Positions 8,587-31,885 are shown, numbered from the stretch's first letter. The stretch: 31,885 bases of DNA from Candidatus Thorarchaeota archaeon (GCA_003345555.1 PRDJ01000030.1:1-31885); one strand, 5' to 3'. Program-made: numbers and translations. The notes: generated by a model from the sequence alone, not told the origin.

Positions 8587-8589
8587 GAA

Positions 8590-10603: not shown

Positions 10604-10618
10604 ATCGTTACGAACTTC

Positions 10619-10903: not shown

Positions 10904-10912
10904 GTGTTGTTA

Positions 10913-12121: not shown

Positions 12122-12151
12122 TGTGGTCTGAGTACATGTCCTGATGTGAGC

Positions 12152-12186: not shown

Positions 12187-12525
12187 CAGGAGTGGCAGAG
12201 GTTACCGAAACTATTAGTGGCGAGCTCTTCACTCAAGATCCAGATCATCGTCGGAACCCGACTCATCGGGGTCATGACAGTCATCACTCGCCAGGCTCCA
12301 ACATCAGTACATTCACCGTTTATTGTTTTCTGGACAGAGTTGGACACAGGAGTCTCTGTCCACCCAGAAACGGCACTGGGCTGCAACTCCGGGAGGCTTA
12401 GTTCGTGTGCCTTAACCTCAACAATCAGATTACTCTCCCAAGCTTACGTACTCCTACAATGCGATATCCAAGTCTGTCCATGTTTCCGGCAGCTGCCGCA
12501 TACCCTTAAGTCTGGCGACAAATAA

Positions 12526-12625
12526 TGGTGCGACCGCCGGGATTTGAAATCCCGCGGCTTTTGAAAACCGACTCGGGTTGGAAGCTTGGGAGGCTTCCGT
12601 CCTAACCAAACTAGACCACGGTCGC
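12526..12625 (-). tRNA. trnG: tRNA-Gly(CCC) with a 23-nt intron at position 53/54 and encoded CCA
   Basis: Acceptor GCGACCG/CGGTCGC, D stem GTCT/GGAC, anticodon stem GAAGC/GCTTC with loop CT-CCC-AA, T loop TTCAAAT after splicing, ACCA end. Mature length is 77 nt. Confidence 0.93.
12549..12571 (-). other. BHB-type tRNA intron in the T arm of tRNA-Gly
   Basis: Central 4-bp helix CCCG/CGGG, 3-nt bulges AG|T and AT|T, inner hairpin CGGTTT-tcaa-AAGCCG. Cutting after the 2nd nt of each bulge restores CCGAG-TTCAAAT-CCCGG. Confidence 0.88.
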
Positions 12626-12657: not shown

Positions 12658-12836
12658 AGTATCGGCGAATCTCACGCTCGCGTGACCGGAGGGTCATCAC
12701 GGTGGTGTGCATGAATGATTGGTTTCATTGAATTGTCCGACACTCCGCAGTCGCTCGATACTCTGACAAACCCTTGAATGACCCTACAGAAGTCTTATCT
12801 CTGTACCGGGTGAGTCCGACGTCGAGAGTCGCACAC

Positions 12837-16252: not shown

Positions 16253-16387
16253 TAGCTTAGCCAAAGTATCCACCAGAAAGGCGTGAGCATGATGCCTAAA
16301 AAAGGGCACAAGGTAATAGCGACAGGTTTAATTCAAGACCGTCGCTCCACGCTATGGAAAGCCAGACTGCCGGGAGCGTCAGAGTGC

Positions 16388-16753
16388 ATGGTGATTAAGC
16401 TGAAGGATGCTGTCATCGACCTGATTGATGACACTGAAACCAAGAGACTAAAGCTCGTAAGAATAACGTCCAAGACGGATGGCGCAACTCTGACTATTGA
16501 ACTTCCAGAAGCACTGTGTGAGAGGCTTAGCGTAAAAGATCGTGTTGATGTCAGTATAGATTCCAAACCCATTTCGAAGGGAGAAGAAGCCAAGCTGTAT
16601 GCCGAGGGTACGCTGTTACGTATGGTTGAAGGAAAGGCTCTGGAGATTATGGGATCTGTCGGGGGTCTAAGAGTAGAGCTTAAGATCACGAAGCCGACAC
16701 CCGCGCAGAGTAAGACATTTGCATCGAATGTGTTTTATCTCATGATTTTGTGA
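16388..16753 (+). CDS. rpo8: RNA polymerase subunit Rpo8 (RpoG, eukaryotic RPB8 homolog)
   Basis: 121-aa OB-fold-like pattern VRITSKTDGATLTIEL, LSVKDRVDVSI, LYAEGTL and GSVGGLRVEL (equivalent to RPB8 SFGGLL). ATG 16388 is preferred over 16283. Confidence 0.7.
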   Translation: MVIKLKDAVIDLIDDTETKRLKLVRITSKTDGATLTIELPEALCERLSVKDRVDVSIDSKPISKGEEAKLYAEGTLLRMVEGKALEIMGSVGGLRVELKITKPTPAQSKTFASNVFYLMIL

Positions 16754-16920: not shown

Positions 16921-17988
16921 TTGGCAATCTCGGTGTGGTCTTTGGTCAATGAGGTGGATGAGCCACTCATAACCTCTTCATGGTCCTGTCCAGACTGTTC
17001 AGGGCAGTTGGTGACCAGTCAAGGGCATATAGTCTGTACAGAGTGCGGACTTGTGGTTTCAAGAGAATATGTACATCCTACGTATCAAATGGGCGAAGAG
17101 CAACATGCAGATGCTCCTGATGCGGCATCGTATGTCTCGTTGGGAAACAGACTGCATATCGTGGATGGACTTGGCAGTTACATTGGTTATCATAAGGATA
17201 CGTACTTCCGAGACGCTCATGGGCAAACACTCTCTGGATATGCACAGAAGAAGTTCAAACGCTTAAAGCTTGTATACAGCGCCCGCATAAGAATCGGAAA
17301 AAGCGAAGCAAAGTATCGGGCACTTAGGACGCTGAATCATGTTTCGAAGTTGTTGATGTTAAGTGAACAAGTACGTGATCGCACAGCATATCTGTACAAG
17401 AAAGTAATCTCGGAAACTCCAGAGAAGGTTAACAACAATATCCTAGTGATGGCGGTATGCCTTTTGATGGCAGTACGCGAGTTCAAAGATGGAGCTCCGA
17501 TAACTCTGGAAGAGATTGCTGGTGTTTTCGAAAGGTGTGGCCATAGAGTGAATGTACGCGCGATGGTGCGCGAAGCAATGCGGCTCAAGTCTATCACCGG
17601 TCACTCTCCCGAACTCAGGCGACCCGAGGATTATGTCCCCAGAGTATTGTCTATGGTGATGAACAACCCGATAGCGATTAGTAAAATGAAATCTAGGGGA
17701 TGGGATTCCAGCGAGTATGAAAATGCCATGAGAGGTAAGATGCTTGCCATACTCGATATGATACCCGCTTCAAAGAGAGGTGGTCGGAATCCATTCATAT
17801 TTACAGTCTCAGTCGCTTATACTGGCGATAGATTGATAGCTGGTGAACATGGAAGACATTCCGTCCTAACTCAAAAGCTAGCCTCCAGAGCGACCAAAGT
17901 GGCCGAGTACAGTATTCGAGACCACTTTGGGGTGATAAAGAAGCTCTTAGAGAGTGTACCCAAAGCCGCCATCGAAAATTCGGAATAG
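16921..17988 (+). CDS. tfb: Divergent transcription initiation factor IIB (TFB) paralog
   Basis: Zn ribbon CPDC..CTECG, cyclin repeat 1 (RDRTAYLYKK..PITLEEIA), RPEDYVPR, repeat 2 (GRNP..TQK..VAEYSIRDHF). The exact start is uncertain. Confidence 0.82.
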   Translation: MAISVWSLVNEVDEPLITSSWSCPDCSGQLVTSQGHIVCTECGLVVSREYVHPTYQMGEEQHADAPDAASYVSLGNRLHIVDGLGSYIGYHKDTYFRDAHGQTLSGYAQKKFKRLKLVYSARIRIGKSEAKYRALRTLNHVSKLLMLSEQVRDRTAYLYKKVISETPEKVNNNILVMAVCLLMAVREFKDGAPITLEEIAGVFERCGHRVNVRAMVREAMRLKSITGHSPELRRPEDYVPRVLSMVMNNPIAISKMKSRGWDSSEYENAMRGKMLAILDMIPASKRGGRNPFIFTVSVAYTGDRLIAGEHGRHSVLTQKLASRATKVAEYSIRDHFGVIKKLLESVPKAAIENSE

Positions 17989-18083
17989 TTACTGATTGGC
18001 AGCAAGCGTTTCTCTCGTCCCGATTCCGAGAGTTTGCGGCAGCTGTTAGAAACTAGGACAGACTCGGGGATTGGACTATAGGA

Positions 18084-18347
18084 GTGTATAAACCTGCGCG
18101 TAGAATCGAACTCCAGAAGTTGGCGCGACTCGGACCTCGAATAGCTGCAGACCGATGCCGTTTCTGGGCGGATAGAGACTTCTGTGCCCAACTCATAACG
18201 GATGATTCGATTCTCTATTCAGACTGCACAGTTCTGTACTGCCTCCATAGGCATGATAGCGGCTGGTGGACCGACGCGACGAAGTACCTCAATCGGGGAG
18301 CGAGAAACAACGGTGCCGATATGACTGTCAACTGGAATGAGAAGTGA
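18084..18347 (+). CDS. Small Cys/His-containing hypothetical protein
   Basis: 87 aa with 4 Cys. Its stop overlaps the next start (GTGA at 18344-18347), suggesting translational coupling. No family recognised. Confidence 0.4.
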   Translation: MYKPARRIELQKLARLGPRIAADRCRFWADRDFCAQLITDDSILYSDCTVLYCLHRHDSGWWTDATKYLNRGARNNGADMTVNWNEK

Positions 18348-20074
18348 GCAGTTGCTTGATAGTACCCAAGCTAAATGTACTAAGATGCCCAAAGACGCGT
18401 TGCAGGGGCTGCAAGCATGCATCAGTCACGACTGATGAACCTTGCACACGCCTCTCAGCTATGGCGTTGACCAGCGACCATCAGGATAAGATCCTGATTC
18501 TCGAACCCAATCAGGGGTTTGTTCACATAGGGGGACTCAAGGGAGAGTTTCCCAAAGGACCGCCTTGGCAAGCTGATGGCTGGGAGTCGGTTTATGTGGG
18601 AGACCATGGTACTCTGGACAATTGGGAAAGCCTCATTGACATTTATCCTGTCGGACCCTACCTATCCGTGTATTACAGGATTGCTTCTAGCCCGTCCACA
18701 CTTCACAGGGCTGTTCCGTACGTCAGAACGCCCCTTGAGCTCGCTCTAGTTGAAAGACTATGCAAAGAGAAGAGTCAATTCACTGGAACTGTGGGCGCAT
18801 GCAGAATGAATCTAACCGCAAGAATGAGAGAGATTTCATTTCTTGTTGCCGAGAGAATCTCGGACACATTGCCAGAAATCAGCAGCCCTACGAGAGCCAG
18901 AATCGCTGAAATAGTGGGGCATCGTTCAAATGCTCTTGGTTCGTTGTTTCCTGTCCTATTGGATGATGAGGTCGAAGAAACGTACATAGATGGACCTCAA
19001 TCTTCAATGTACTTCGACCATCGGCGTCTTGGTCGATGTAGCTCGATGATTACTCTCGGACAACAAGACGCGGAACGAATCGTCACTCTTGTTAGATGTG
19101 AAAGCAATCTACATCTGGACAGGCATAACCCATCACTGAAGACTGACGTGAATCTGTTTGATGCGAATCTTCGCTTCTCCGTTTGTCTACCGCCACTCAG
19201 CGTGGATGGACTACATCTTGAAATCCGGCGTGCACCCAGTAATCCATATTCAATATATGACTTAATTCGCAACGGCACGCTCACCATCGAGGCTGCAGCC
19301 TTGCTTCTCTTGGCAGTGTGCGGAAGGTTCAATATCACAATAACTGGGGGGCCAGGATCGGGCAAGACCACTCTTCTGAATTCCTTAGACATGACTACTC
19401 CGCGAGCTTGGAGAAAGATCTATGTTGAAGATGCCATCGAGAGCAGGAGATTCGGGGACCAACATCAAGTGAGGTACAGAGTTGACCCCCTTGATGAGAC
19501 CGAGGCGAAATTCGACAAGAGCACGGAAATCATCAAGACTCTTCATAGATCACCAGATTACCTGATTCTGGGGGAGATTCAGACTGCGGAGCACAGTCGT
19601 GCCCTGTTTCAAGCAATTGCTGCAGGTCTTAGGTCAATTCAGACGTGTCACAGCGACTCCGCCTCAAGTCTAGTATCCCGTTGGATGCTCAATCATGGAA
19701 TCGATAGGTCAAGTATTGCTCTCATGGATGTAATTGTTACAGTTGAGAGACTGACACCGGGAGAGTCGAAACGCCGAGTGAAGGAAATCGCCGAGATTAG
19801 GAGAACTGTCAATGATGGGATGCTCTCCTTTGCTGGGCTGAACAGAGTATTCGCGAATGGCACGATTGTTCCCGAGAAATCAAGATGGGCCAAGGACGGT
19901 GCTTTTATCCTTCGTGCTCAGGAACAAGGTGCGGACAGTCACCTAGCAGCCTATGAAGCATTGATTGACAGGCTTGTCGGCTCATCAGATAGTTACGGTG
20001 CTACTGATACTTCGCCTATCGGAGAAAGACTATGGAAGTCTGGCAATCCCTTCATGCATACTGAACAGGAATAG
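18344..20074 (+). CDS. CpaF/TadA/VirB11-family (type II/IV secretion) ATPase with a Cys-rich N-terminus
   Basis: LLDDEVEETYIDG, LRFSVCLPPLS, Walker A GGPGSGKTT, Asp box VEDAIE, Walker B PDYLILGEIQ, His box QTCHS. Confidence 0.85.
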   Translation: MSSCLIVPKLNVLRCPKTRCRGCKHASVTTDEPCTRLSAMALTSDHQDKILILEPNQGFVHIGGLKGEFPKGPPWQADGWESVYVGDHGTLDNWESLIDIYPVGPYLSVYYRIASSPSTLHRAVPYVRTPLELALVERLCKEKSQFTGTVGACRMNLTARMREISFLVAERISDTLPEISSPTRARIAEIVGHRSNALGSLFPVLLDDEVEETYIDGPQSSMYFDHRRLGRCSSMITLGQQDAERIVTLVRCESNLHLDRHNPSLKTDVNLFDANLRFSVCLPPLSVDGLHLEIRRAPSNPYSIYDLIRNGTLTIEAAALLLLAVCGRFNITITGGPGSGKTTLLNSLDMTTPRAWRKIYVEDAIESRRFGDQHQVRYRVDPLDETEAKFDKSTEIIKTLHRSPDYLILGEIQTAEHSRALFQAIAAGLRSIQTCHSDSASSLVSRWMLNHGIDRSSIALMDVIVTVERLTPGESKRRVKEIAEIRRTVNDGMLSFAGLNRVFANGTIVPEKSRWAKDGAFILRAQEQGADSHLAAYEALIDRLVGSSDSYGATDTSPIGERLWKSGNPFMHTEQE

Positions 20075-20081
20075 CTCGTAT

Positions 20082-20110
20082 GCTTCTTGGCTACTGCCTC
20101 GCCAAGAAGC
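20082..20110 (+). terminator. Perfect 10-bp hairpin just after the ATPase stop (terminator or RNA stability/processing element)
   Basis: GCTTCTTGGC-(9 nt)-GCCAAGAAGC. There is no U-tract, so the function is uncertain. Confidence 0.4.
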
Positions 20111-20200
20111 TATCGACTTGTTGATCGAATAGGATCATAGTCCATCTTACTGAGGTCCTAACTTGAACTCAATGTCGAGCCATTCTGATATCGGTGGGAC

Positions 20201-20208
20201 TTAAAATA
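20201..20208 (+). promoter_or_regulatory. TATA box for the prepilin gene
   Basis: TTAAAATA ending about 36 nt before ATG 20244. Confidence 0.5.
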
Positions 20209-20243
20209 GGATTCAGAGGACAGACATAATTGGGTACGGACAC

Positions 20244-20450
20244 ATGAGTATGCGACCAAAGCTGAAGAGTGACACCAAGGGAGGACCATTGGTAGAGGAG
20301 AGCTTGTTATTGGGTCTTGCTGTGATTACGGTTTCAATAGTGATTGCAGTAATACTGGAAGCCACAGGTTGGGCTCAAGATGTTGTAAATGGTCTATTCC
20401 AGCTCCTCAAGGATAGCTGGAGTGGTCTGACAGGGCTTTTGACACCTTAG
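20244..20450 (+). CDS. Flp-like type IV prepilin (class III signal peptide)
   Basis: Basic leader ending DTKG|, Glu at +5 (GPLVE), a hydrophobic helix of about 20 aa and a short amphipathic tail. The mature protein is about 55 aa and the gene follows a CpaF-type ATPase. Confidence 0.7.
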   Translation: MSMRPKLKSDTKGGPLVEESLLLGLAVITVSIVIAVILEATGWAQDVVNGLFQLLKDSWSGLTGLLTP

Positions 20451-20613
20451 GTTTTATCGTGGAAGATACCTGCGGCCGGGGAAACTCTTAGGATTAGTTG
20501 CTCGAAATCGGAACAAGCCAAGGTGCGGCAGTGTTGAATATGCCAATTGATTCAGAGAAAGGCTTATTTGCAGAGCAAAAAGTGAAGCCCTGCTCCGGGC
20601 TGGAACCACCAAG

Positions 20614-20723
20614 GCTCCGGTAGACGCATTGAGTTTGATCTGCAATGCGGTCGTATGTAGTCCGGCCCAGCATTGGGGACCCTCGATCCTCAGACCCGGG
20701 TTCAAATCCCGGCCGGAGCACCA
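20614..20723 (+). tRNA. trnE: tRNA-Glu(CUC) with a 32-nt intron at position 10/11 and encoded CCA
   Basis: Acceptor GCTCCGG (20614-20620)/CCGGAGC (20713-20719), D stem GTGT/GCAT after splicing, anticodon stem GGGGA/TCCTC with loop CC-CTC-GA, T arm CCGGG-TTCAAAT-CCCGG, ACCA end. Mature length is 78 nt. Confidence 0.9.
20624..20655 (+). other. BHB-type tRNA intron at the start of the D stem of tRNA-Glu
   Basis: Inner helix CGCATTG/CAATGCG, central helix CGGT/GTCG, bulges AG|A and TA|T. The standard cut positions give exactly GCTCCGGTAG+TGTAGTCCGG. The outer helix is relaxed. Confidence 0.83.
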
Positions 20724-20731
20724 TCGAGCAA

Positions 20732-22705
20732 TCAATTCAATAGATATCTTCTTCTCGCAACGGGAATGCTCACAACCAATATCGATAGACCGGCGCTTAT
20801 CATGAACCCAAGGATGCCAGCACCTTGTATCGATGAGATGTCGAGGAAATTGAGTGTGATGATTGTGTAGCCAGCACTGAAGAAGAGGAAACGCGAAGTC
20901 TCAATCCAGTATGAAAGATTGAAACAACCAGCGTAAGTTGGGAACAATAGATAGAACTCAGCAATTCCTCCAGGTCCGCTTAGAACACACCCTCTACTGG
21001 ATAGCCATTCAAAGTTCACTGCAACGTAGGCCAAAAGCGATCCATTCAGTGCACGAAGCACCAGCCGAACATGAATCTGCTGTAGTGGTGGTATCATCTG
21101 ATAGTCATACAGTGTCATGGACACGGGCATCTTCTGAGTTACAATGACTGTGTAGGGCATTGATGTGGCCAGTCTGTATTCGCTAGGACTGCCGCAATAG
21201 GTGAAGAGTAGTTCAAGCAGGCACGACGCCTTTGGGGCAACGAATCGAATCCAAAATACTCCAGTGAGATTTGTGAGAACGGTGAATTCGGTCGTGTTGT
21301 CGGTATGTACGTTCACCGTTGTGTTGGCATAGTCGTGTTCGAAGTCGCCCAAGTGCAATTCCACGAGGAATTCTTGACCGGGATAAGCATAGCCCATGAT
21401 TTCAGTGTAGACGAACTTGAATTCCGGACGCACCCAAACCACGCCTTCGAACGTGTACGTTCTGTTGAGTAGGTAGTCGCTGTCCAAGATATTGAGGACA
21501 AAGCTCCTTGGACCTTCCTTACCCGTAATCTGAAGACCTATAGGTACCAGCACGGTATCGGGCAGAATCGGCTGTCTAATCGCTTGACCGGTAGTCAAGT
21601 CATGAAGACTCAACGAGGCACCCGATAGCGGGCGACCAAGCAAGTCTTTCACTTCGACTCTGATATCTGCTTGCGTTCCAGCTATCATGAGTTCTGGCAG
21701 GATGACCTTGACGAAGGACGGGCTGACTATATTGATTTCAACACTAAGAAGGGAAGGAGCATATCGTGACGTGCCAGGGTACCTAACAGCTAACCCGTGA
21801 GGACCCAAAGAGAAGGTGGAATCTATGTCTGTATGGAGAGATGCAATACCTGAACTGTTGGTCGTGATGTAAGCAAGCAGTGTACCATCGAGCAGAACTT
21901 CGAGTGGGACGCCGGACGAGGCCTGTCCATCGGTCTCCAAGAGTATGCAAGACTGAATGCTGCCATTTAGCTCGATCGGATTCTGAGGAGGGTTTACGAG
22001 GAGTAGGTTACTAGGAAGTTGCTGGATAGAGATGTTAAAGAAAGCCTCAGATGCTTCAGTGAAATTGCATAAATCCCGTTCGTGAACGACTTTTATTTGG
22101 TTTACCCCAAGCTGCCCCCAACTGCTATTGCAGTTGATCGCGAAGCTGACTTGACCTGAACTGTCTGTTATGCCGGTCTTGAGCCGTACAGCATTCCAAA
22201 ACACGGCAAGGTATGCGTTTGGTAGAACCATGCCCCCATCGTTTAGAATTGTCGCTGTGAGCGTGAGAACGTCGTCGGGAGCGAGAGTATCTTTGGCCAC
22301 ACGGACACTGATTGTAGTGTGTGATAGAATGGTAATGAATGCCCACTGGCATGATGGGCTCAGGGCTAATGATTGGTTCCCACGGAATGTTGCGTTAAGA
22401 ACACTGATTCCAAGCGGTTGGTCTGTTGGAATGATCCATTGAATTGCGGCTATACCGCTCGGGTTCGTCTGCGCGCAACCCAAGAATGTGTTGTATGTCT
22501 GCTCGAAGAACTCGATCTGTTGGTTTGGAACGGGATTGCCGTAGGTGCCATTTGTTAGAAGCGTAGCGCTGATGGACACGCGCTCTCCACGACAAACAAT
22601 TGTGCCTTCTTCAGCACAGGTCTCGTTGACAGCAAAGGAGACCAAAAAAGCCAAGATTCCTAAGGTGAAGCAGAAAAGAAAACGTGTATCTGTTCGTCGA
22701 TGCAT
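20732..22705 (-). CDS. Membrane-anchored surface protein with Ig-like repeats
   Basis: Signal peptide (RFLFCFTLGILAFLVSFA), repeats TNPSGIA/TDSSGQV/TNSSGIA/TNLTGVF, C-terminal TM helix GILGFMISAGLSILVVSIPV and basic tail ARRRY. Confidence 0.78.
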   Translation of the reverse strand: MHRRTDTRFLFCFTLGILAFLVSFAVNETCAEEGTIVCRGERVSISATLLTNGTYGNPVPNQQIEFFEQTYNTFLGCAQTNPSGIAAIQWIIPTDQPLGISVLNATFRGNQSLALSPSCQWAFITILSHTTISVRVAKDTLAPDDVLTLTATILNDGGMVLPNAYLAVFWNAVRLKTGITDSSGQVSFAINCNSSWGQLGVNQIKVVHERDLCNFTEASEAFFNISIQQLPSNLLLVNPPQNPIELNGSIQSCILLETDGQASSGVPLEVLLDGTLLAYITTNSSGIASLHTDIDSTFSLGPHGLAVRYPGTSRYAPSLLSVEINIVSPSFVKVILPELMIAGTQADIRVEVKDLLGRPLSGASLSLHDLTTGQAIRQPILPDTVLVPIGLQITGKEGPRSFVLNILDSDYLLNRTYTFEGVVWVRPEFKFVYTEIMGYAYPGQEFLVELHLGDFEHDYANTTVNVHTDNTTEFTVLTNLTGVFWIRFVAPKASCLLELLFTYCGSPSEYRLATSMPYTVIVTQKMPVSMTLYDYQMIPPLQQIHVRLVLRALNGSLLAYVAVNFEWLSSRGCVLSGPGGIAEFYLLFPTYAGCFNLSYWIETSRFLFFSAGYTIITLNFLDISSIQGAGILGFMISAGLSILVVSIPVARRRYLLN

Positions 22706-23030
22706 CTCGCTTCGCGGTTCTCCTTGTCTGAATTTTCTGCGGTTGTTTTTGTATCAGAAGGGTACTGCATACTCATCTGTTTCTGACCAATGATTGAGCT
22801 TGCTTCTTGCTGTCAATCATCATACCGGGACTTGCTGATTCGTGTCTTTTAATCTCCTAGAACCTGCGGCCAGCGCGGCTTTTGCGAGGAAAGACCCATG
22901 GCATGAACAGCCACTCAAGATGCTGTAACGTGACCGATTCGGGGGAGTTCATATGGCAGACGAGAGCACGAGGAGAGGATCCAGGCGGCGGACAGAATTA
23001 ATCTGATTTGAACAGCGGTGATAGCACTAT

Positions 23031-26000
23031 ATGCGGGGCCAAAAAGCCTGTCACGAGGGTTACTCGGTTAAGTGGAAAGACAAAGTATGGTCACGCCGGG
23101 CAAGAATGGTCAAATATGGAGGAGCACAGCTTTGTCTAATCTATTTTATTGCAGTCTATGTCCTTCCCCTTGCTGGCATTATCAGGCAGCCCTTTGTTCC
23201 ATTCAAAGCAGCTACTGAGATTCTCATCTGTGCTTTCCCAATATGCTGTGGTTTGATTATTGCAGCAGAGAAGATTGTGACGGAATCGATTTCGTTCTTC
23301 CTAGAAGATGAGTTCTATGTGGTCCGCATTGGAAATCGTGCTGTTGCAGTCTGCTGTCTAGAAATGATGTCCGTCCCTGGATCCGTCGAGCAGGATTCTA
23401 ACAACAGACCAAGATACAACACAACGATGCTCCTCGCCTTGCGAGCAGGGATGGACAGCCATGTGACGATGGCATACGAAGTTGGTCTAGAGAGAGATGA
23501 GCCGTTTCTTCGAGTGTTCATTAGCATAATGGGGACCTGCCTTACCGAAATGGAGGAGACTCTGAAGAGAGAGGCAACCAGAGCAGAGGCAATTTTGCTG
23601 GCATGTCTCAATAATGTGGATCTCCGACAACTGAAGGGCGAGAGCCTGAAGGCGGCGGCGTTATCCATCATTGGAACAGCCGCTTTAGTGGGGACTAGGA
23701 TTGGCGAGAAAGGAATGCAGACTAGGTCAGCAATCGTATTCTCTGGTAATCCGAGGATTGCGCCTTCGGAGTTCACATCTCAGATTGGCACATTTCTTTC
23801 TACAGCGCTCAAGCAACGATATTCGGTGACTCTAACATGCGTGTTTTCGTCCGCAAAGGGCGGTAATGATAGAAGGAAACTTGAAGCGGAATGGAAATCC
23901 ATCCAAGGGAGAGAGAAGAAACAAGAGGATTCGCTTGAGGACCAAGCAGCAAAGAAGGATCTCTTGAGTCAATACGAACAGGTACAAGCTGAGGAGGGGT
24001 GGTTTGATTCGAGTGTCTATATTGTGATAGCTGCCGAGAGTCCCACCGAACTAGAAGTTGTCAAAGAGGGATTGAAAGGACTTGCTTTCTCAGTGTGGGG
24101 CGGAGATGACAATGTATCAATATCAGATGAGAAGATTGGCGGCAGGATGGCTTGCAGGTTGCTTGCAAGGCGACACCTTGGCCGACAGAGGATGCATGTG
24201 AGCAGACTGGCAGCTTTTGTAAACACACCAGTACAGACTATTCCGGTTGTGACCGCACCGCAGATTCCTGACTTTTACGTTCCTCCGAGAGAACTTGTGG
24301 ACAATGAGTTGTACATAGGTTGGACTGTCTACGGCGGACGTCTGCTCAACAAAGTGGGGCTGAAAAAGGAGTGGTTGAGAGAGCATGTTGCAGTTCTTGG
24401 TTCTACCGGTACCGGAAAAACATCGTTGGTCAAGAGACTGATGGCTGAACTGAGTACGAAGACTGATGTGCCTTGGTGGGTATTTGATTTGAAAGGTTCT
24501 GAATATAGCGACCTCGCAAACGTAGGCAGACAGGATGTAATGATACTTCGCCCGGGACTTGACCCCTCTTTCGTGATAGGCCTATTGGATCCTGAGGCTG
24601 ATACAAAAGAAAAACAAGCCCATGCAACATTCGTCATTCTGAGAGAACTCCTAAGGGAGATGGGTACCTCAACAGAACTCTCTCCAGCTATGGAGAAGCT
24701 ATTGAGGGATGCGATTCTTGACACGGCAAAGATGCCAAATCACGGTAACTCGGTGCACGCATTGATTGATAAAATCAATCAGCTCGCTGATAGTGACCGC
24801 ACGGGAATTATGACAAGAGATGCCTTGCTAAATCGCTTAGAGGTCCTTTCCCGAGAGCCATTGGGTTCGATTCTAGGTGGAGGGTCACACTCGATGGTAG
24901 TATCGAGTTTACTTAGCAAGCGTGTAGTATTCGATTTGCGGTACGTTGCACGAACAGGAGGCATGGACGCCGCCCGTCTTTTGTATAATCTGGTCGCGAA
25001 ACGCATCTTTGATGGTGCAATGCGCCGTGGTATAACAGCCGAACTCAATCATGTTGTCGTGCTTGAGGAAGCAAACAACCTCGTTCCTGAAAGCTACACG
25101 AGACAATCCGCAGCAGATGTAACAACAGGCGAGTCAATGGTGATGTTGCAGAGAGCTACTGGTCAGGGTGTCATTGTCGTTTCAACTAGACCAAATATCT
25201 CATCAAATATCCTAGCAAATACTGCCACGAAGATTACATTCAGACTGCCCTATGACAGCTCAGTCGGGGCGAGATTCATGTCCTTGAATGACACACAGGA
25301 GCGTTACCTTCGGATGCTCAAGGTGGGAAGAGCCCTAATCGTGACCCCGGAGACAGATACCTTCGAGCTGGCAACGGCACCATTTGAAGTGGTGCCGCCA
25401 GCGGAATCAATCGAGACTGACATCGACTCAGAGAAACAAGACCGGACTCAGGACCATGCGGCCACTGAACTGGGACGGACAGAGATGATGCAATTGTGTG
25501 CTCCAGACAGCGTGACTGCAATCAGGACAAAAAGGGCCATGAGCAGCGCTGTTACTGTCGAGCATCGGGGCGTTGTATTTGATGGTTTGGGAGAACTGGC
25601 GAACCAGGCGGTGGCATTCCTTGCATCACACGGCGTAGCCACAAGAGATGAACTGCAGAATGTGCTGACTGCTTTCAACCCACAAATCAGGAATGATGAT
25701 GCGGCCGAGTTGATCCAGGAACTTGTGTCTCTAGGTTCGATTGAACGCGAGTCTCTGCCGCTTGTCGGAGGCGGGGTTCTTTTTACGTTACCGGGCAAAG
25801 GATGTGATGCGATAAGAGAGGCGGTAATTGGGTATGTCTCAGTGCGCTTGGGACGGTCTCTGAGTTCAGAGGAGAATGGGCGTCTTGGAAATGAAGTCGT
25901 CATTGTGGACGACAAGGCAATTCTCATAGTTCCTGAGCACCTGAAAGCGTCGTCCATGGAGAGTGTCCTTGAAAGAATCCGGTATCAGATGAGCACCATG

Positions 26001-26882
26001 GGAAATGGCGTGACAGAGCTATTTGTGATAGTCAGAGGAAGCGTCGCAGCCGCTAGGCTAAGAGAGCTAATGGACAGAAATGAAGAGTATGATGCGGTGA
26101 GCGTTGTTTCAGCTTTTCCGAGTTCACTCGATAAGATGATTGAGACTCAACTTCAAAGAAGCAAATCGGGAAAGATGCAGGAATCGGATACGGGTGTCTC
26201 TGAGATTGGTAGCAGAATGGAGGGTACCACGCTGAAAGAGGAAACGGCCGAGGACAATGCTCGTGCCCGTTCCTCAATGCAGTTGCGGCTTTGGTTCGGT
26301 GTAATCCAAGACTTTGTGGATTTATCGAATGGCAAAGTCAGATGGAATACACTCGTAGAATTCATTGATACAACTGCGCTTCAATCAGTCAAGGGAAGGT
26401 CAATTCCCATGAGCGCATACGAAGGCAAACAGGCATTGACAGATTTGTTGTCGGATGGCCGACTTGTGGCAATGAGAGTTAGGAACGGCAGAGCATTTCC
26501 AAGTCTGGAGGAGGGATTATGGGTAGTTGGCCGTTCAGCTATCAGGGATCTTAAGACGACCGCGGTTGGTGCTCTTGAATCGCAGTTGCTGAAGCTTAAT
26601 GAGCCGATTGCGAAGGGCCATGGCTGCTATGATTTGTGTGCAGGAGGCAAGTCTTATGCTGTCTTTCCGAGTCAAGATCAACTTGACATTCTCTTGCAGC
26701 TTGACAATGAAATCGTCTGCAAGTCGTGCGAATCCACCCAGGCAATCTGTATCCTACCCGCCGCCGAATACCTTGACGACGAAGCAGCCAAACCTGCTAA
26801 TTTGAGAATATGTGAATTAGAAGATGTGCAGAGCATCATAGGACGCAGCAGAAGCACGGGAGATGCCAGAGTTCGCAGGTAA
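23031..26882 (+). CDS. Membrane-anchored VirB4/HerA/FtsK-superfamily ATPase with long N- and C-terminal extensions
   Basis: Two N-terminal hydrophobic helices, LYIG..VGLKKEWLREHVAVLGSTGTGKT (Walker A), VFDLKGSEY, VVFDL, Walker B VVLEEANN, STRP, LANTATKITFRL, then a wHTH-like segment and further C-terminal domains. Confidence 0.82.
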   Translation: MRGQKACHEGYSVKWKDKVWSRRARMVKYGGAQLCLIYFIAVYVLPLAGIIRQPFVPFKAATEILICAFPICCGLIIAAEKIVTESISFFLEDEFYVVRIGNRAVAVCCLEMMSVPGSVEQDSNNRPRYNTTMLLALRAGMDSHVTMAYEVGLERDEPFLRVFISIMGTCLTEMEETLKREATRAEAILLACLNNVDLRQLKGESLKAAALSIIGTAALVGTRIGEKGMQTRSAIVFSGNPRIAPSEFTSQIGTFLSTALKQRYSVTLTCVFSSAKGGNDRRKLEAEWKSIQGREKKQEDSLEDQAAKKDLLSQYEQVQAEEGWFDSSVYIVIAAESPTELEVVKEGLKGLAFSVWGGDDNVSISDEKIGGRMACRLLARRHLGRQRMHVSRLAAFVNTPVQTIPVVTAPQIPDFYVPPRELVDNELYIGWTVYGGRLLNKVGLKKEWLREHVAVLGSTGTGKTSLVKRLMAELSTKTDVPWWVFDLKGSEYSDLANVGRQDVMILRPGLDPSFVIGLLDPEADTKEKQAHATFVILRELLREMGTSTELSPAMEKLLRDAILDTAKMPNHGNSVHALIDKINQLADSDRTGIMTRDALLNRLEVLSREPLGSILGGGSHSMVVSSLLSKRVVFDLRYVARTGGMDAARLLYNLVAKRIFDGAMRRGITAELNHVVVLEEANNLVPESYTRQSAADVTTGESMVMLQRATGQGVIVVSTRPNISSNILANTATKITFRLPYDSSVGARFMSLNDTQERYLRMLKVGRALIVTPETDTFELATAPFEVVPPAESIETDIDSEKQDRTQDHAATELGRTEMMQLCAPDSVTAIRTKRAMSSAVTVEHRGVVFDGLGELANQAVAFLASHGVATRDELQNVLTAFNPQIRNDDAAELIQELVSLGSIERESLPLVGGGVLFTLPGKGCDAIREAVIGYVSVRLGRSLSSEENGRLGNEVVIVDDKAILIVPEHLKASSMESVLERIRYQMSTMGNGVTELFVIVRGSVAAARLRELMDRNEEYDAVSVVSAFPSSLDKMIETQLQRSKSGKMQESDTGVSEIGSRMEGTTLKEETAEDNARARSSMQLRLWFGVIQDFVDLSNGKVRWNTLVEFIDTTALQSVKGRSIPMSAYEGKQALTDLLSDGRLVAMRVRNGRAFPSLEEGLWVVGRSAIRDLKTTAVGALESQLLKLNEPIAKGHGCYDLCAGGKSYAVFPSQDQLDILLQLDNEIVCKSCESTQAICILPAAEYLDDEAAKPANLRICELEDVQSIIGRSRSTGDARVRR

Positions 26883-26926
26883 TACGATTCTGCTCATGGT
26901 ATGCGCAGTTAGTATGGTTGGAAGAC

Positions 26927-27721
26927 CTAGAGTATAATCCTCGTGCAAAGGACGGGTTTTCGAGAGAGCAATGCTTCTAGACGCCCAGGCACAGACAGGT
27001 TGAACACAGCAATCTCTCTTTTCTTTCCCGCGAGTTTAGTCAACTCGGCAAGCTTGGCCGTCATTCCCCCGGTAACGTCCGTGGCTTTTGATGAGCTTGC
27101 CCCGAGCATGACTTGATTCATATTCGACTTGTCGATGATAGGAATCATCGTGGCATTCGGTTTGTCTCTAGGATCGGCTTCGTACACACCATCAACATCA
27201 GTTCCGATATACACAGATTCTGCGTCAAGGATTTCTGCTATGTGCACAAGAATCGTATCACCGCTAAGGATTGATGCACCACGAATGTCGTCAAAGCATA
27301 CATCGCCGTGAGTCACCACTGTCAGCCCTGTCTGAAGTGCCCTTTGAATCAGTTCCATAGGAAAGCTAGACACCGAACCATCATGCATCTGTACAAAAGA
27401 GAAAGGAGAAAACACAGCTGCGGGTATCCCAACATTCTGCATTATGCGCTCGACTTGCATTGAAAGCAGAGTCATGTTATGACGAATCGCAGGGACACCT
27501 GCCAGAAGGCGTTCCTTCGGTGTCTTTGGGTCTCCAAAACCGAATCGATGGGCTGCCTGATGACCATGTGCTCCGCCGCCGAGGACAATGACCAGATTAC
27601 CGTTGTACCCCTTCAACTCGAGAGCTATGCGTTTCACTGCTTCGTGATTTACTCTGGGTGGAGAAGCGCTCTTGTGAGTGATTACAGAACCTCCAAGCTT
27701 AACAACTGTCACACGGTGCAA
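26927..27721 (-). CDS. ipk: Isopentenyl phosphate kinase (amino acid kinase family)
   Basis: VVKLGGSVITHK, GGGAHGH (IPK His), VTHGDV, ILSGD, TDVDGVY, DVTGGM..K. TTG 27721 is preferred over the 27871 start in the ORF track. Confidence 0.85.
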   Translation of the reverse strand: MHRVTVVKLGGSVITHKSASPPRVNHEAVKRIALELKGYNGNLVIVLGGGAHGHQAAHRFGFGDPKTPKERLLAGVPAIRHNMTLLSMQVERIMQNVGIPAAVFSPFSFVQMHDGSVSSFPMELIQRALQTGLTVVTHGDVCFDDIRGASILSGDTILVHIAEILDAESVYIGTDVDGVYEADPRDKPNATMIPIIDKSNMNQVMLGASSSKATDVTGGMTAKLAELTKLAGKKREIAVFNLSVPGRLEALLSRKPVLCTRIIL

Positions 27722-28001
27722 TGATGAAGCCCCGAGAATGTGTCCGAAAAGGCAGCTTATGGAGGTTATTATTGATGGACGGCCTGTGCTGTCGTGAGAA
27801 AGCGGGCCGCTGTGGCAGTCCCTAGAGCATGAACGGATGGAGAGAGAGGAATCTCCATGGAAGAGATGCAATTGCTGTAAAGACTGGCGATGTCTGATAC
27901 ATCCGGGATCGTTGGAAGCCGAAGGCCAAATACAGACGGCAGGGAACCAAGAGAATTGAAATATCAGCGTGGGCAGGTACTACCCATTCGTTGTAACATA
28001 C

Positions 28002-28024
28002 AGGTTGCAAAGCAACCTTTTTAT
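28002..28024 (+). promoter_or_regulatory. Palindromic operator-like site abutting the rps10 TATA box
   Basis: AGGTTGC-aaa-GCAACCT (28002-28018) runs directly into TTTTTAT (28018-28024), in the divergent ipk/rps10 spacer. Confidence 0.45.
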
Positions 28025-28077
28025 CCGATTCCACGCTGGCTGCCGGGGACGTCTCCTCAAGCGGGGTAAACAGTCAC

Positions 28078-28389
28078 ATGACTCAGAGAGCTAGGATTCG
28101 ACTATCGAGTACGAGTACAGAGTATCTCGATGGCGTATGCAATCAAATCAAGCGAATTACCCGCAAGACAGGAGTACGGATGGCTGGTCCGATTCCGTTG
28201 CCCACGCGTCGAATGATTGTTCCCACGCGGAAAACGCCCTGTGGACAGGGTTCCGAGTCATGGGATAAGTGGGAGATGAGGATACACAAGCGATTGATTG
28301 ACATCGATGCCGATGAGCGTGCCATCCGTCAGATAATGCGTGTGAAGATTCCTGATTCTGTGTATATCGAGATTGAGCTTACCGGATAG
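28078..28389 (+). CDS. rpsJ: 30S ribosomal protein uS10
   Basis: [50 protein letters not shown]. Confidence 0.97.
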
Positions 28390-28491
28390 TGCCCGAGTCT
28401 TATCTCGAGTTACGGCGATTTCAGAAGAAGGACTGTGTTCGGTCACCGGAGCGTATATGAGGTTCGCTTGTCCCTCATAGAGGCAGAAATC

Positions 28492-30315
28492 ATGTGCGGA
28501 ATAATCGGTGTAGTTCAAGAACGAGGAGAAGTGGCTCCGTTCCTTCATCAAGCGCTGAAGAGGCTGGAGTATAGAGGCTACGATTCAGTAGGAGTAACAA
28601 CCATTGCGAACGAGCACCTATACATTAAGAAAGAGAAGGGTAAGATTGACGAGGTACACAAGAAACTCAATCTGGACGATCTTCCTGGGTCTATAGGCAT
28701 CGGACATACTAGATGGGCCACACATGGAATACCTTCCATGCTGAACTCGCATCCGCATTTTGACTGCAATGACGAGATAGCTGTTGTACACAATGGTGTA
28801 ATAGATAATTTTCTGGAACTAAGGAGCGAACTCAGTGCAAGAGGGCATGTTTTCAACTCTGATACGGATACAGAAGTCATTCCTCACATGATTGAAGAGT
28901 ATATGAATGAGGGAATGGACCTGAAAGCGGCTCTCAGAAGAGTTGCTCTTAGGATTGAAGGAACCTATGCGATTGTTGTCATGACGACGAGAGAGCCGGA
29001 CAAGATATGTGCCGTCAGAGACGGCAATCCTCTAGTAATCGGCACGCAGGAGGGTGTACACTACATTAGTTCGGACATTCCGGCTTTTCTGCCGATGACG
29101 AACAACATGGTCCTTCTCTTGGATGGGGAGATTGCCAGCCTCTCTGCGAGCGGAGTTCAAATCGAGAAGCTTTCAGATGGTAGTAGAGTACAGCGTGAAA
29201 GCATCAAGGTGAGTTGGACCGCAGATCAGGCCCAGAAGGGTGGCTTTCCTCATTTCATGCTCAAGGAGATTCATGAGCAGCCGGAAGCAATCAGGAATAC
29301 GCTAAGGCTTCGTAGAGATTCAATCGTCAAGGCTACCGAGATTATTCAGAGTGCAGATAAAGTGTATATGATAGCAATGGGTACATCTAGTCATGCTGCC
29401 ATGGCTGGGCGGCATATGTTTGGCTCTCTTGGCGGAGTACTTCCGATATGCGAACTGGCGAGCGACTTTCAAGATAGTGTTTATGATGCCCTCTCTGGGG
29501 ATGATTGCATATTGGCAATCACACAGTCGGGAGAGACAACAGACACTATTGCGGCGACGAAGTACGCCAAGCATCTTGGTGCCAAAGTGATTGCAGTCAC
29601 GAATGTGGTAGGAAGTTCAATAACACAGTCTGCCGACCACACGATCATTACGCAGGCGGGACCTGAAATCGGGGTTGCTGCAACGAAGACTTTCATGGTG
29701 CAGCTTACTGCATTGGCCCAGATTGCATTGACCTTGGCCGAAAGTAATCGAAAGATGGACCGAGACATCATCTTGAGAAAGCGAGAAGGTCTTGCTAGAC
29801 TTCCAGAGATTGTGTCTGAAGTGATAACTAGAAATGAAGAGCGATCACGAATGCTAGCTGGTGTGTTCTATGACAAACCGAGCTTCTTGTTTCTCGGACG
29901 GGGCGTGTCGGTGGCAACTGCGAATGAAGGAGCATTGAAGCTGAAAGAGATAGCCTACAACCATGCTGAAGGGTATTCGGCAGGCCAATCAAAACATGGA
30001 CCGATTGCACTCGTACAGGATGGCTATCCTGTGGTATGTGTCGTTCCTAGAGATGTTACAAGAAACCGCATGATTGGGAACATAATGGAGATGAAAGCGA
30101 GGGGAGCATCGATCGTCTCCGTTGTCGAAAAGGACGATCAAGAAGTCAGTGGCCTCTCGGATCATGTCCTCGAAATACCAGCAGGTGTTGAATCGGAATT
30201 CTCACCAATGCCGTATGTGGTACCACTCCAGCTGTTCAGTTATTATGTTGCGCTGAGAAAGGGATATGACCCTGACAAGCCTCGCAATCTTGCCAAGTCT
30301 GTGACTGTCCTCTAG
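28492..30315 (+). CDS. glmS: Glutamine--fructose-6-phosphate aminotransferase (isomerizing)
   Basis: N-terminal MCGIIG (catalytic Cys), RLEYRGYDS, GHTRWATHG, HNG, SDTDTEV, SQSGET, GPEIGVAATK, KHGPIAL, PRNLAKSVTV. The start must be ATG 28492 for the N-terminal Cys. Confidence 0.97.
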   Translation: MCGIIGVVQERGEVAPFLHQALKRLEYRGYDSVGVTTIANEHLYIKKEKGKIDEVHKKLNLDDLPGSIGIGHTRWATHGIPSMLNSHPHFDCNDEIAVVHNGVIDNFLELRSELSARGHVFNSDTDTEVIPHMIEEYMNEGMDLKAALRRVALRIEGTYAIVVMTTREPDKICAVRDGNPLVIGTQEGVHYISSDIPAFLPMTNNMVLLLDGEIASLSASGVQIEKLSDGSRVQRESIKVSWTADQAQKGGFPHFMLKEIHEQPEAIRNTLRLRRDSIVKATEIIQSADKVYMIAMGTSSHAAMAGRHMFGSLGGVLPICELASDFQDSVYDALSGDDCILAITQSGETTDTIAATKYAKHLGAKVIAVTNVVGSSITQSADHTIITQAGPEIGVAATKTFMVQLTALAQIALTLAESNRKMDRDIILRKREGLARLPEIVSEVITRNEERSRMLAGVFYDKPSFLFLGRGVSVATANEGALKLKEIAYNHAEGYSAGQSKHGPIALVQDGYPVVCVVPRDVTRNRMIGNIMEMKARGASIVSVVEKDDQEVSGLSDHVLEIPAGVESEFSPMPYVVPLQLFSYYVALRKGYDPDKPRNLAKSVTVL

Positions 30316-30361
30316 CGGGCTTAAATCCGCTTGAATGGAATAGTCCCTCGTGAGCGTTGTC

Positions 30362-30610
30362 ATGCAGTATTGTATTCTAAGCCCTTTGGTAGATTTTGCG
30401 AATGTCATATCCCAACATCTTGCGGAGATATGGGCATTCTTGATGCTTGTCGGCAGGATTTCGGCGATTATTGTTGTGCTTGCAGGAGCGATTCTTTGGT
30501 TCACTGAAGTGAATTCGTCCAAGGGGAAACAGCTGGTCATGAGCGGTATTCTGCTAGCGGTTGTGGTTCAGTACTTTGTTATGTATCCTCCGTCCTTCGC
30601 CTTAGGCTAG
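30362..30610 (+). CDS. Small two-helix membrane protein resembling VirB2/TrbC-type conjugative pilins
   Basis: 82 aa. Hydrophobic helix ending VVLAGAILWF, basic loop NSSKGKQ, then LVMSGILLAVVVQYF. It has its own TATA-like TTAAAT at 30321-30326. The family assignment is by eye only. Confidence 0.5.
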   Translation: MQYCILSPLVDFANVISQHLAEIWAFLMLVGRISAIIVVLAGAILWFTEVNSSKGKQLVMSGILLAVVVQYFVMYPPSFALG

Positions 30611-30629: not shown

Positions 30630-31844
30630 TCACAGTAGTTGTTCACGTATGAGCCTCAGCGATTCTGCAAGCCTATCGATATCCTGGAATGAATTGTAGA
30701 CATGCAGAGATGCTTGTATGATCCCCTCATTTGCGAATACTCGGATTAGAGGGTGTGCACAAAGCAGACCACTTCTGACTGCAACATTCGATTGGTCTAG
30801 GAACAGCGAAATGTCGTGGCAGCTGATTCCGCCACCTTCACCCATGTTAAAGCCGAAGATCGTTGAACTCTCACTAGGCAGACCGTAAAGAACGAGATTA
30901 TCGATGCTAGTCAGACGTTCCAGCATGTATTGAGATAGAGCCTTCATGTGATCAAGAAATCCTCTTGAATGGAGGGTACGGAGATAGTCAATAGCTGCCC
31001 CCAAGCCGACAATCGCTGGAACATTGATGGTTCCTGGTTCAAACTTATCGGGTTGCATGGCTATGTCATAGGAGGAGGGGGTTACATTGGCCACCGCGGA
31101 TCCTCCGATTATGCCCGGTAGTAAGACTGTGCCCAGTGATTTGTCTATCCACTGTACTGTTAGACCAGGAGGACCCATGAGTCCAACGTTGCCCGAAAAG
31201 AAGAGAACATCGGCACCGATTGATTTGGGGGAATGGGTTGTAGTCCCCATAGATCGAGTCGCATCGGTCATCAGTATCGCTCCGTTTTCGTGAGCAATTC
31301 CTGCGATTTCGTTGGTCGGGTTTTGAACACCGACACCGGTTGTGACATCGCTAACAGCAATCATTCCTGTTCTGCTGTTGACCCGTGCCTTCAGTTGCTC
31401 GATTTGCAGCAATCCTGTATTATCGATTGGAATAGTGTCGACTTGGAGACCAAGAACCTCAGCCACCCTTAGGAGAGTCGTGAGGATGGAATGTTCTTCG
31501 CTCTCAGCAATTGCGATGTGGTCTCTATTCTCTTTGTGCCAGTCATATCCGTAGGCAAATGATGCCACTGCGGCAGGGAGAGAGCCATGAAACGAGACCT
31601 GCGATTTCTCTGTGTTGATGAAATCGGCCAGCGATGAACGGGCATTTTCAACGAGAGTATTGCTCATAACAGCGAGTTTGTATGCGCCTCGGCGAGAAGA
31701 GACAGTACAGGTGTTTAGGAAGATAGTAGTAGCCTTGATAGCTTTCTTTGGAACGAGACTCGTACTAGCTGAGTCAAAGTATGCAAGGTCGGGATGGACG
31801 TCGTAGACGCCGAAGTCGGACTTTACCTCGAGCATGACTGTCAC
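30630..31844 (-). CDS. SufS/cysteine desulfurase-fold (class V aminotransferase) protein lacking the PLP-binding lysine
   Basis: YFDSAST, EEH, KFEPGTINVPAIVGLGAAIDYL and RSGLLCAHP match SufS, but SGHK reads SGNV. Start is GTG 31844 or ATG 31835. Confidence 0.85.
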   Translation of the reverse strand: MTVMLEVKSDFGVYDVHPDLAYFDSASTSLVPKKAIKATTIFLNTCTVSSRRGAYKLAVMSNTLVENARSSLADFINTEKSQVSFHGSLPAAVASFAYGYDWHKENRDHIAIAESEEHSILTTLLRVAEVLGLQVDTIPIDNTGLLQIEQLKARVNSRTGMIAVSDVTTGVGVQNPTNEIAGIAHENGAILMTDATRSMGTTTHSPKSIGADVLFFSGNVGLMGPPGLTVQWIDKSLGTVLLPGIIGGSAVANVTPSSYDIAMQPDKFEPGTINVPAIVGLGAAIDYLRTLHSRGFLDHMKALSQYMLERLTSIDNLVLYGLPSESSTIFGFNMGEGGGISCHDISLFLDQSNVAVRSGLLCAHPLIRVFANEGIIQASLHVYNSFQDIDRLAESLRLIREQLL

Positions 31845-31885
31845 GGTGAACGCTTCAATGTGCAGGCTTTTAACGTCATCCGATG

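Follow-up and report, generated by a model that had tools for sequence, protein, structure and literature searches.

A chromosomal gene set of Asgard archaea that may encode one envelope machine: a Tad/subclade 4D-type filament unit, a Ced/Ted-like VirB4/VirB2 unit and a divergent TFB

Do the genes for a divergent transcription factor B (TFB), a type IV filament ATPase, a short prepilin-like protein, a VirB4-like ATPase and a two-helix membrane protein, which lie close together in a Candidatus Thorarchaeota archaeon, specify one machine or several? The stretch of DNA analyzed (the window) is the whole of contig C30, which is 31,885 nt long. It is part of a 2.28-Mb metagenome-assembled genome (MAG) of 82 contigs that is 93% complete and belongs to the Thorarchaeota (Asgard); close relatives of the window proteins bear the label Candidatus Thorarchaeota. 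Asgard archaea are close relatives of eukaryotes. The locus appears, with a likelihood somewhat better than even, to encode parts of one chromosomal and vertically inherited envelope machine that is found across Asgard archaea and has two kinds of module.

The original prediction for this region was of a domesticated pilus and DNA-transfer system similar to Ups, Ced and TFB3, and this interpretation is partly supported. The genes it was built on are all present, on the predicted strands and within a few bases of the predicted ends, according to open reading frame (ORF), Pfam and NCBIfam scans. The gene map, drawn from the ORF listing and the Pfam/NCBIfam scans of the window, gives the following loci of direct concern (TM, transmembrane; Ig, immunoglobulin):

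13574–16309, minus strand: Ig911, an Ig-like surface glycoprotein (Big_1, 1.7e-9)
16283–16753, plus strand: rpo8 candidate (Rpo8/RpoG, RNA polymerase subunit), likely start at about 16385
16921–17988, plus strand: TFB*, a divergent TFB/TFIIB paralogue (Pfam TFIIB repeat 3e-5, Zn ribbon 2.5e-4)
18344–20074, plus strand: T2SSE ATPase, type IV filament ATPase of the TadA/FlaI/GspE2 class (PF00437, 2e-20)
20244–20450, plus strand: Flp68, a 68-aa Flp-like candidate class III prepilin (KG|GPLVEE motif followed by a single hydrophobic helix)
20732–22705, minus strand: Ig657, a second Ig-like surface glycoprotein (Big_3_5, 2e-8)
23031–26882, plus strand: BigATP, a 1283-aa membrane-anchored VirB4-like ATPase (two N-terminal TM helices, DUF87 5e-14)
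30350–30610, plus strand: o86, an 86-aa two-helix VirB2/TrbC-like membrane protein

Linkage of these genes was followed by profile searches of 151 genomes and by local hidden Markov model scans of 20-kb loci; families sampled are denoted by f-numbers. Within the Thorarchaeota family the block from Ig911 to the aminotransferase at the right flank is syntenic in more than 16 genera. This is weak evidence, because the housekeeping genes of the block are equally syntenic. In two rearranged genomes of the family, BigATP stays with Ig657, and o86 with GlmS.

In other lineages the genes are found in other arrangements. TFB*, T2SSE and Flp68 occur together in at least 12 families, the majority of those sampled, including records labelled Odin-, Jord-, Baldr-, Frey-, Atabey- and Borrarchaeia; at these loci two T2SSF-type membrane genes are often situated between T2SSE and Flp68, and rpo8 is sometimes alongside. 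The o86-like gene is directly upstream of the VirB4-like gene and on the same strand, i.e. in an operon, in all four Baldrarchaeia genomes, and the two are 5 kb apart in f12. A Flp68-like gene abuts the VirB4-like gene in Borrarchaeaceae, and an o86-like gene adjoins TFB* in two Borrarchaeum species. The order in Borrarchaeum is Flp68, VirB4-like, cdc6, Ig-like, T2SSE, TadB-like, TFB* and o86-like, all within about 20 kb. The Flp-like and o86-like sequences are fused in f20 into one protein of 149–170 aa; f17 and an unrelated NCBI MAG have them side by side, and in the MAG a gene for an XPD-like helicase comes next. The gene set is thus co-conserved, as had been predicted, in the sense that its genes re-associate in different orders across Asgard lineages. 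From these independent rearrangements in other Asgard lineages, one functional network is therefore the best reading, and the balance leans modestly towards the parts forming such a network. No description of an Asgard module of this kind was found in a literature search.

The main rival explanation is that two independent systems are neighbors by chance in Thorarchaeota, i.e. a 4D/Tad-type unit of TFB*, ATPase and Flp-like protein, and a unit of the VirB4-like, VirB2-like and glycoprotein genes that would serve another function. In most families outside of the Thorarchaeota, a gap of 12 to more than 100 kb separates the VirB4-like gene from the Flp68/T2SSE unit, or the two are on different contigs. 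Also in agreement with two systems, VirB4-like/Ig657 and T2SSE/TFB* each stay paired in rearranged genomes and the pairs move relative to each other. However the fused or adjacent Flp-like and o86-like sequences, the Flp68-like gene that abuts a VirB4-like gene, the o86-like gene beside TFB* in Borrarchaeum and a promoter type common to both units are not readily explained by chance proximity, and two separate neighboring systems are considered unlikely, if still the strongest competitor.

In BigATP two N-terminal TM helices are followed by a VirB4-type N-terminal domain, then by the ATPase domain and by an unassigned C-terminal tail of 480 aa. Its start is likely M26, at nt position 23106. 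An AlphaFold (AF2) model of residues 26–805 was made from an alignment of 29 Asgard homologues (pLDDT 82). In a Foldseek search of the PDB with this model, the 13 best matches are all chains of R388 TrwK/VirB4 (E 1e-20 to 2e-13), and the alignment of about 800 columns spans both the N-terminal and the ATPase domains. HerA is matched at 8e-13, over the ATPase part alone. With VIA-align the ATPase domain (385–768) has Z scores of 30.8 to DndH-C, 30.0 to VirB4, 26.8 to TrwB and 26.5 to HerA; full-length TrwK alone spans residues 60–762, and HerA structures cover only about 385–768. As modeled, BigATP folds like VirB4 over both domains and not like HerA.

These comparisons bear on the possibility of a repair or anti-phage role of HerA type for the large ATPase. 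Its Pfam match is to DUF87/HerA and it has weak NCBIfam HerA_antiphage matches, but the N-terminal domain is covered only by VirB4 in the fold search and does not match the HAS-barrel expected of such enzymes, TM anchors are present, and a better HerA candidate is found on contig C50, one of five other DUF87 ATPases in the genome. Pfam/NCBIfam scans of the window show no NurA, Sir2 or DUF4297 among the neighbors of BigATP. A HerA-type role is thus very improbable, and the prediction that the large ATPase groups with VirB4 is upheld against both HerA-NurA and defence HerA by Foldseek and VIA.

The best NCBIfam match of BigATP is to CedD and is very weak (2e-10, 40 bits, where the cut-off is 600). 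The 480-residue tail is family-specific and has no Atlas, Pfam or PDB match; a homologue search for shorter relatives of BigATP gave only Thorarchaeota fragments. A protein with four CBS domains adjoins the VirB4-like gene in f2, f7 and f8 (L036 13678–15070, L074 11486–12301, L075 8097–8900). Its orthologue in the present genome is at C72:4500–5790, on the same short contig as a prepilin peptidase gene. The domain is too common for this neighbor to be taken as a functional clue.

o86 is predicted by AF2 to be a hairpin with helices at positions 3–52 and 56–78 (pLDDT 87). A Foldseek search with the hairpin gave no match at E ≤ 0.001, with the H-pilus pilin only at rank 47. The wider o86 family displays an invariant core, G-x-I-x-W...G-K...G..L. 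Among 17 divergent family members, Pfam gives TrbC/VirB2 matches in six (best E 4.5e-4) and T4SS_pilin matches in three, all of them sub-threshold; the best TrbC/T4SS_pilin match has 20.8 bits and the cut-off is 27.9. The family profile, when searched against 1.84 billion representatives, recovered 103 clusters. T4SS_pilin (best 1e-10) and TrbC are the only recurrent Pfam families in 98 scanned relatives, and the link between o86 and VirB2 is transitive, via five of these 98. The named language-model neighbors of o86 are all conjugative-pilin families, with lead-level scores of 0.83–0.86, and distant family members bear an N-terminal signal peptide, as do VirB2 and TedC. PDB sequence searches with both o86 profiles gave nothing meaningful. 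On these sequence similarities o86 is a likely, though not a proven, member of the VirB2/TrbC superfamily. The designation of o86 as VirB2-like is based on the weak TrbC/T4SS_pilin matches of its wider family; the predicted two-helix hairpin is compatible with it but is not separated by fold search from unrelated hairpins. An uncontrolled complex prediction for Flp68 with o86 scored 0.00 and gives no verdict either way.

Most genomes of the Thorarchaeota family have two to five copies of o86. In the present genome, a close paralogue is at C10:62967–63206 (minus strand), beside a histone deacetylase gene and a radical-SAM gene. A paralogue with four TM helices, which consists of two tandem hairpins, is at C10:19163–19831 (plus strand), directly upstream of the gene for the A-type ATPase B subunit. 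In addition, o86-like sequences are found adjacent to or near an XPD-like helicase and a DUF87 ATPase on distant, possibly non-Asgard archaeal contigs (L176 8343–10259; L173 1172–4158). Their proximity to these two genes hints at a link to DNA handling.

The second ATPase of the locus had been described as of CpaF/VirB11 type. A profile of its family scores 175 bits with afGspE, 139 with FlaI, 103 with CpaF and 39 with VirB11 in the PDB. Because afGspE, FlaI and CpaF score far above VirB11, the T2SSE ATPase is, by its sequence, a member of the archaeal type IV filament clade and not of VirB11; the CpaF half of the description is compatible with this and the VirB11 half is not. The score with TIGR03819 is 89 bits, which is far under the equivalog cut-off. 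An N-terminal CX4CX2CX7-10C motif is kept within the family, and Cys-rich N-termini are also present in f12, f19 and f21. Of 150 genomes of the phylum, 136 have a T2SSE relative. In a list of the best 120 T2SSE relatives, most bear the precomputed Pfam family PF27713.

Flp68 has a predicted class III cleavage site, KG|GPLVEE, which places Glu at position +5; there is no Tyr, and a single hydrophobic helix follows. Relatives are present in 118 of 151 genomes of the phylum, and 27 columns are invariant over 18 genomes. In other families Flp68 comes directly after T2SSE-TadB-TadC. No Pfam match was detected for Flp68 (PF04964 included), nor anything meaningful in a PDB profile search.

The TadB/C platform is encoded outside of the window. 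A fused orthologue of 558 aa is at C27:630–2303 (PF00482, 4e-8), and it matches the two genes that are situated between T2SSE and Flp68 in other families. An A24 prepilin peptidase is encoded on contig C72 (40 bits). Of the predicted partner proteins, TadB/C and the peptidase are thus found elsewhere in the genome, but a genome-wide PF04610 search gave no VirB6/CedA-like protein, a search that divergent CedA/TedA could escape. The fused TadB/C gene (C27:1–3128 region) is flanked by the DNA-repair gene nreA and by a gene for a 220-aa polytopic membrane protein without a known family.

Two known systems resemble this filament unit, and the pilus half looks more like the Tad/4D kind than like Ups, which had been proposed. 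With the bacterial Tad/Flp pilus (CpaF/TadA, TadB, TadC, Flp, TadV) it shares the broad clade of its ATPase, a TadB/C-type platform in two parts, a very short pilin candidate whose N-terminus is of the G|xxxxE type, and the presence of an A24 peptidase in the genome. It differs from the Tad/Flp pilus in that its ATPase scores higher with archaeal GspE2/FlaI than with CpaF (175 and 139 vs. 103 bits), Glu replaces the signature Tyr of Flp, outer-membrane parts are lacking and a TFB gene is attached.

The other relative is subclade 4D of Pyrobaculum and Thermoproteus, which has been described as lacking pilins and as possibly related to transcription (Makarova, Koonin and Albers 2016, PMC4858521). 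In both sets the ATPase begins with a small Cys-rich domain, the same gene string holds a TFIIB homologue in which a single cyclin domain is recognizable, and rpo8/RPB8 is alongside (for the Asgard rpo8 on language-model evidence only); both also have small membrane partners, which in 4D are thought to be TadC derivatives (PMC4858521). The Asgard loci differ in having a Flp-like pilin candidate and recognizable T2SSF-type platform genes, and in being linked to VirB4-like and VirB2-like genes. The T2SSE half thus matches subclade 4D feature by feature, a likeness that leaves orthology to arCOG05558/05559 aside. The best 120 proteins related to T2SSE and the best 80 loci are all from Asgard archaea, with no Thermoproteales sequence among them; two records labelled Thermoproteota/Bathyarchaeia fall within the same phylum sample.

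A further explanation follows the proposal made for subclade 4D by Makarova et al. (PMC4858521), i.e. that TFB*, the ATPase and Flp68 are a membrane-linked device for transcription or signaling in which the small proteins are fixed membrane subunits, and not a filament machine. The tight linkage of TFB* and rpo8 to the ATPase across the phylum is in keeping with this, as are the Cys-rich N-terminal domain of the ATPase and the invariant columns of Flp68, which is far more conserved than is usual for exposed pilins. However the ATPase is accompanied by canonical TadB/C-type platform genes and by a class-III-like signal on Flp68, and the genome has a prepilin peptidase. Such a device is quite improbable as the explanation for the locus; a filament unit is preferred.

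TFB* is full length at 355 aa, and Pfam shows a Zn ribbon and one recognizable cyclin repeat. It scores 54 bits with the NCBIfam TFIIB model NF001658 (cut-off 384), whereas the four canonical TFBs of the genome score 402–457 bits. From its sequence, TFB* is a highly divergent fifth TFB paralogue. In the majority of the Asgard families sampled, its orthologue adjoins the T2SSE ATPase gene.

Sulfolobus TFB3 is a truncated TFB without the DNA-binding core and is a UV-induced co-activator. TFB* differs from it in being full length with both Zn ribbon and cyclin repeat, and since it is not truncated, TFB* is ruled out as a TFB3 orthologue. The idea of a TFB3-like factor is therefore correct as regards a divergent paralogue but not as regards the kind, since TFB* resembles the TFIIB of 4D rather than truncated TFB3. 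A role analogous to that of TFB3 is possible.

The sole support for the rpo8 candidate is from a protein language model, which places it closest to RpbG clusters of the Atlas (0.94, with 225 features in common). There is no Pfam or NCBIfam match and no match in a PDB search, and the Pfam RpbG and Rpb8 models find none over the whole genome. The candidate adjoins TFB* in families f1, f3, f8 and f12.

Almost every genome of the family has a GGnnCTTAAAT element in front of both Flp68 and o86, at a distance of 40–50 nt. To scan 4.55 million positions of the present genome, a matrix was built from the Flp68 orthologues of other genomes and from no other sequences. Its ranking places the promoter of an o86 paralogue 3rd, sequence upstream of BigATP 17th and the promoter of o86 itself 30th. 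The promoter of S10 belongs to another type. Other top matches are heterogeneous (DNA methyltransferase, urocanase and others), and no clean regulon emerges from the genome-wide scan.

Ig911 has an N-terminal signal peptide and 24 N-x-S/T sequons. Related genes come after the VirB4-like gene in f12 and ahead of T2SSE in Borrarchaeum. Ig911 and porA are convergent, and the 3′ ends of their ORFs share about 400 nt (13574–13970). As read, the Ig911 ORF is without a C-terminal TM anchor; it may in fact stop sooner, or its frame could be disrupted. Ig657 has both a signal peptide and a C-terminal TM anchor (TM segments 6–31 and 626–651) with 15 sequons. It is divergently transcribed from the VirB4-like gene; the two are neighbors in all genomes of the family, even where rearranged (two genomes), as well as in sister family f2.

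The VirB4/VirB2 half is closest to Ced of Sulfolobales and Ted of Thermoproteales, DNA-exchange systems with the components CedB/CedD/TedB, CedA1/TedC and CedA/TedA (PMC9905601, PMC11868833). Common to both are a chromosomal, domesticated set of type IV secretion system (T4SS)-like genes, a TM-anchored VirB4-like ATPase (TM, N-terminal domain and ATPase, as in CedD) and a small two-helix VirB2-like protein (CedA1/TedC), for which the assignment of o86 is sub-threshold (PMC9905601, PMC11868833). The published architecture of CedD and CedB is a TM segment, a VirB4-type N-terminal domain and an ATPase (PMC11868833). The Ced system of Sulfolobales cooperates with the Ups type IV pilus and with a TFB paralogue (PMC9905601, PMC11868833). 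The Asgard set differs in several respects. The CedA/TedA (VirB6-like) channel was not found, the similarity of BigATP to CedD is marginal and BigATP adds its long tail, and the Asgard parts are physically linked to a Tad-like unit and a TFB gene, with DNA import suggested only by analogy.

As to the channel, the window encodes no polytopic membrane protein, and the highest PF04610 score genome-wide is 14.7 bits; CedA/TedA are too divergent for exclusion on this basis. With respect to the bacterial VirB/Trw T4SS (R388 TrwK/VirB4, TrwL/VirB2), which is the best structural match of BigATP in both domains, o86 shares the hairpin topology, but VirB3/6/8/9/10/11, VirD4 and relaxase are absent and the set is not on a mobile element.

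The T4SS-type parts could in principle be the remnant of an integrated conjugative element or plasmid. However the window has no integrase or relaxase by Pfam/NCBIfam scans, no coupling protein and no flanking repeats (direct repeats of ≥18 bp are absent from it), and G+C is flat at 0.47–0.52 with no compositional step. In addition the chromosomal position of the set, with core genes on either side, is constant over more than 16 genera. The predicted absence of integrase, relaxase and att repeat is thus correct for the window; the locus is chromosomal and not mobile, and an element remnant is hardly credible.

Several observations weigh against a single contact machine. The two rearranged genomes of the family separate Flp68 from T2SSE, and a distance of tens of kb or more divides the VirB4-like gene from the T2SSE unit in most Asgard families. 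Neither a channel of VirB6/CedA/TedA type nor a coupling protein or relaxase was detected. The hairpin fold of o86 is non-specific, such that a fold search cannot separate unrelated hairpins, the assignment to VirB2 is below the Pfam cut-offs and o86 paralogues occur in unrelated contexts. The related 4D system of Thermoproteales has itself been regarded in print as possibly not a pilus (PMC4858521). Lastly, a Flp68-type motif (AGGAGCTTAAAT, 6837–6848, minus strand, between GINS and mcm) ranks 2nd genome-wide. Because this second-best site is upstream of mcm, the Flp68-type promoter class is not confined to the module.

In the proposed machine, Module A would be a filament unit of Tad/subclade 4D type, with the T2SSE ATPase and its Cys motif, the tiny Flp-like pilin, a TadB/C platform and prepilin peptidase supplied from other contigs, and a private divergent TFB that travels along next to rpo8. 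By analogy with Tad, the ATPase and platform would extract processed Flp68 from the membrane to form a thin filament. Module B would be a minimal Ced/Ted-like type IV secretion unit of VirB4-like ATPase, VirB2/TrbC-like protein and Ig-like glycoproteins. Here the VirB4-like hexamer would extract or polymerize the o86 hairpin and power substrate transfer, as in VirB4/VirB2 and Ced/Ted (PMC9905601). The Flp-like and VirB2-like proteins may form surface filaments or a contact conduit, the Ig-like glycoproteins may be adhesins, and TFB* may give promoter selectivity and direct transcription of the set.

A cell-contact or DNA-transfer machine is plausible. DNA is the best guess for the substrate of the VirB4-like motor, a tentative one made by analogy and doubtful as it stands. 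The most extensive proposal is that of an ancestral Asgard apparatus for contact-dependent DNA exchange, with Flp-type pilus and Ced/Ted-like VirB4/VirB2 conduit as one machine, switched on by a private TFB that reads a promoter class with a G-rich B recognition element (BRE) and kept near the replication origin and cdc6. In this full form it is improbable. If true, it would be a functional counterpart of Ups, Ced and TFB3 in the closest prokaryotic relatives of eukaryotes.

The gene set may have significance in several ways. It joins two types of machine that are separate in Sulfolobales, i.e. a type IV pilus and a domesticated T4SS, and also ties both to a paralogue of a basal transcription factor. 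No description of a cell-contact or gene-exchange apparatus in Asgard archaea was found in the literature searched, and contact and gene exchange in these organisms bear on how the archaeal ancestor of eukaryotes met its partners. The puzzling association of TFIIB, ATPase and RPB8 in Thermoproteales 4D systems is extended to another phylum, where it is joined by a pilin candidate that might account for the function of 4D systems. Asgard strains now being in culture, the gene set is concrete and testable.

The remaining loci of the window are as follows:

1–12386, mixed strands: histone deacetylase, hel308, intein-containing mcm, GINS, two RFC subunits, truA, ArsR regulator and cdc6
783–2990: hel308, left of the set
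10913–12121: cdc6, left of the set
12526–12625, minus strand: tRNA-Gly
12774–13970, plus strand: porA
20614–20723, plus strand: tRNA-Glu(CUC), intron-containing, read by eye
26927–27871, minus strand: isopentenyl phosphate kinase (IPK), strong Pfam/NCBIfam matches
28078–28389, plus strand: ribosomal protein S10, strong Pfam/NCBIfam matches
28435–30315, plus strand: GlmS, strong Pfam/NCBIfam matches
30630–31883, minus strand: class-V aminotransferase, right flank

IPK, S10 and GlmS are interleaved housekeeping genes outside of the system. They adjoin the module only in the Thorarchaeota family, although the GlmS-o86 pairing is also found in the sister family. The interleaving with core genes noted in the original prediction is thus present, but the housekeeping neighbors are a feature of this family alone. 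Similarly, cdc6 and hel308 are both in the window as predicted, with the qualification that both are on its left side, the aminotransferase gene being the flank on the right of the set.

An Orc1/Cdc6 gene is found within about 10 kb or less of Flp68/T2SSE or VirB4-like genes in many unrelated Asgard families (L038, L039, L040, L042, L043, L047, L050, L054, L056, L067, L068, L168 and L172), and at these loci the remaining housekeeping neighbors are not conserved. The proximity of Cdc6 could reflect either an origin-proximal location or a regulatory link.

The tRNA-Glu(CUC) gene was missed by ARAGORN and by Rfam at the gathering threshold and is backed only by tRNA-like covariance model matches. 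It has an intron of about 40 nt at a non-canonical position, and CCA is encoded. The tRNA-Gly(CCC) gene (12526–12625, minus strand) is 100 nt long and likewise holds an intron. The MCM gene (3065–6751, minus strand) has an intein with a LAGLIDADG endonuclease, which is located inside the P-loop domain.

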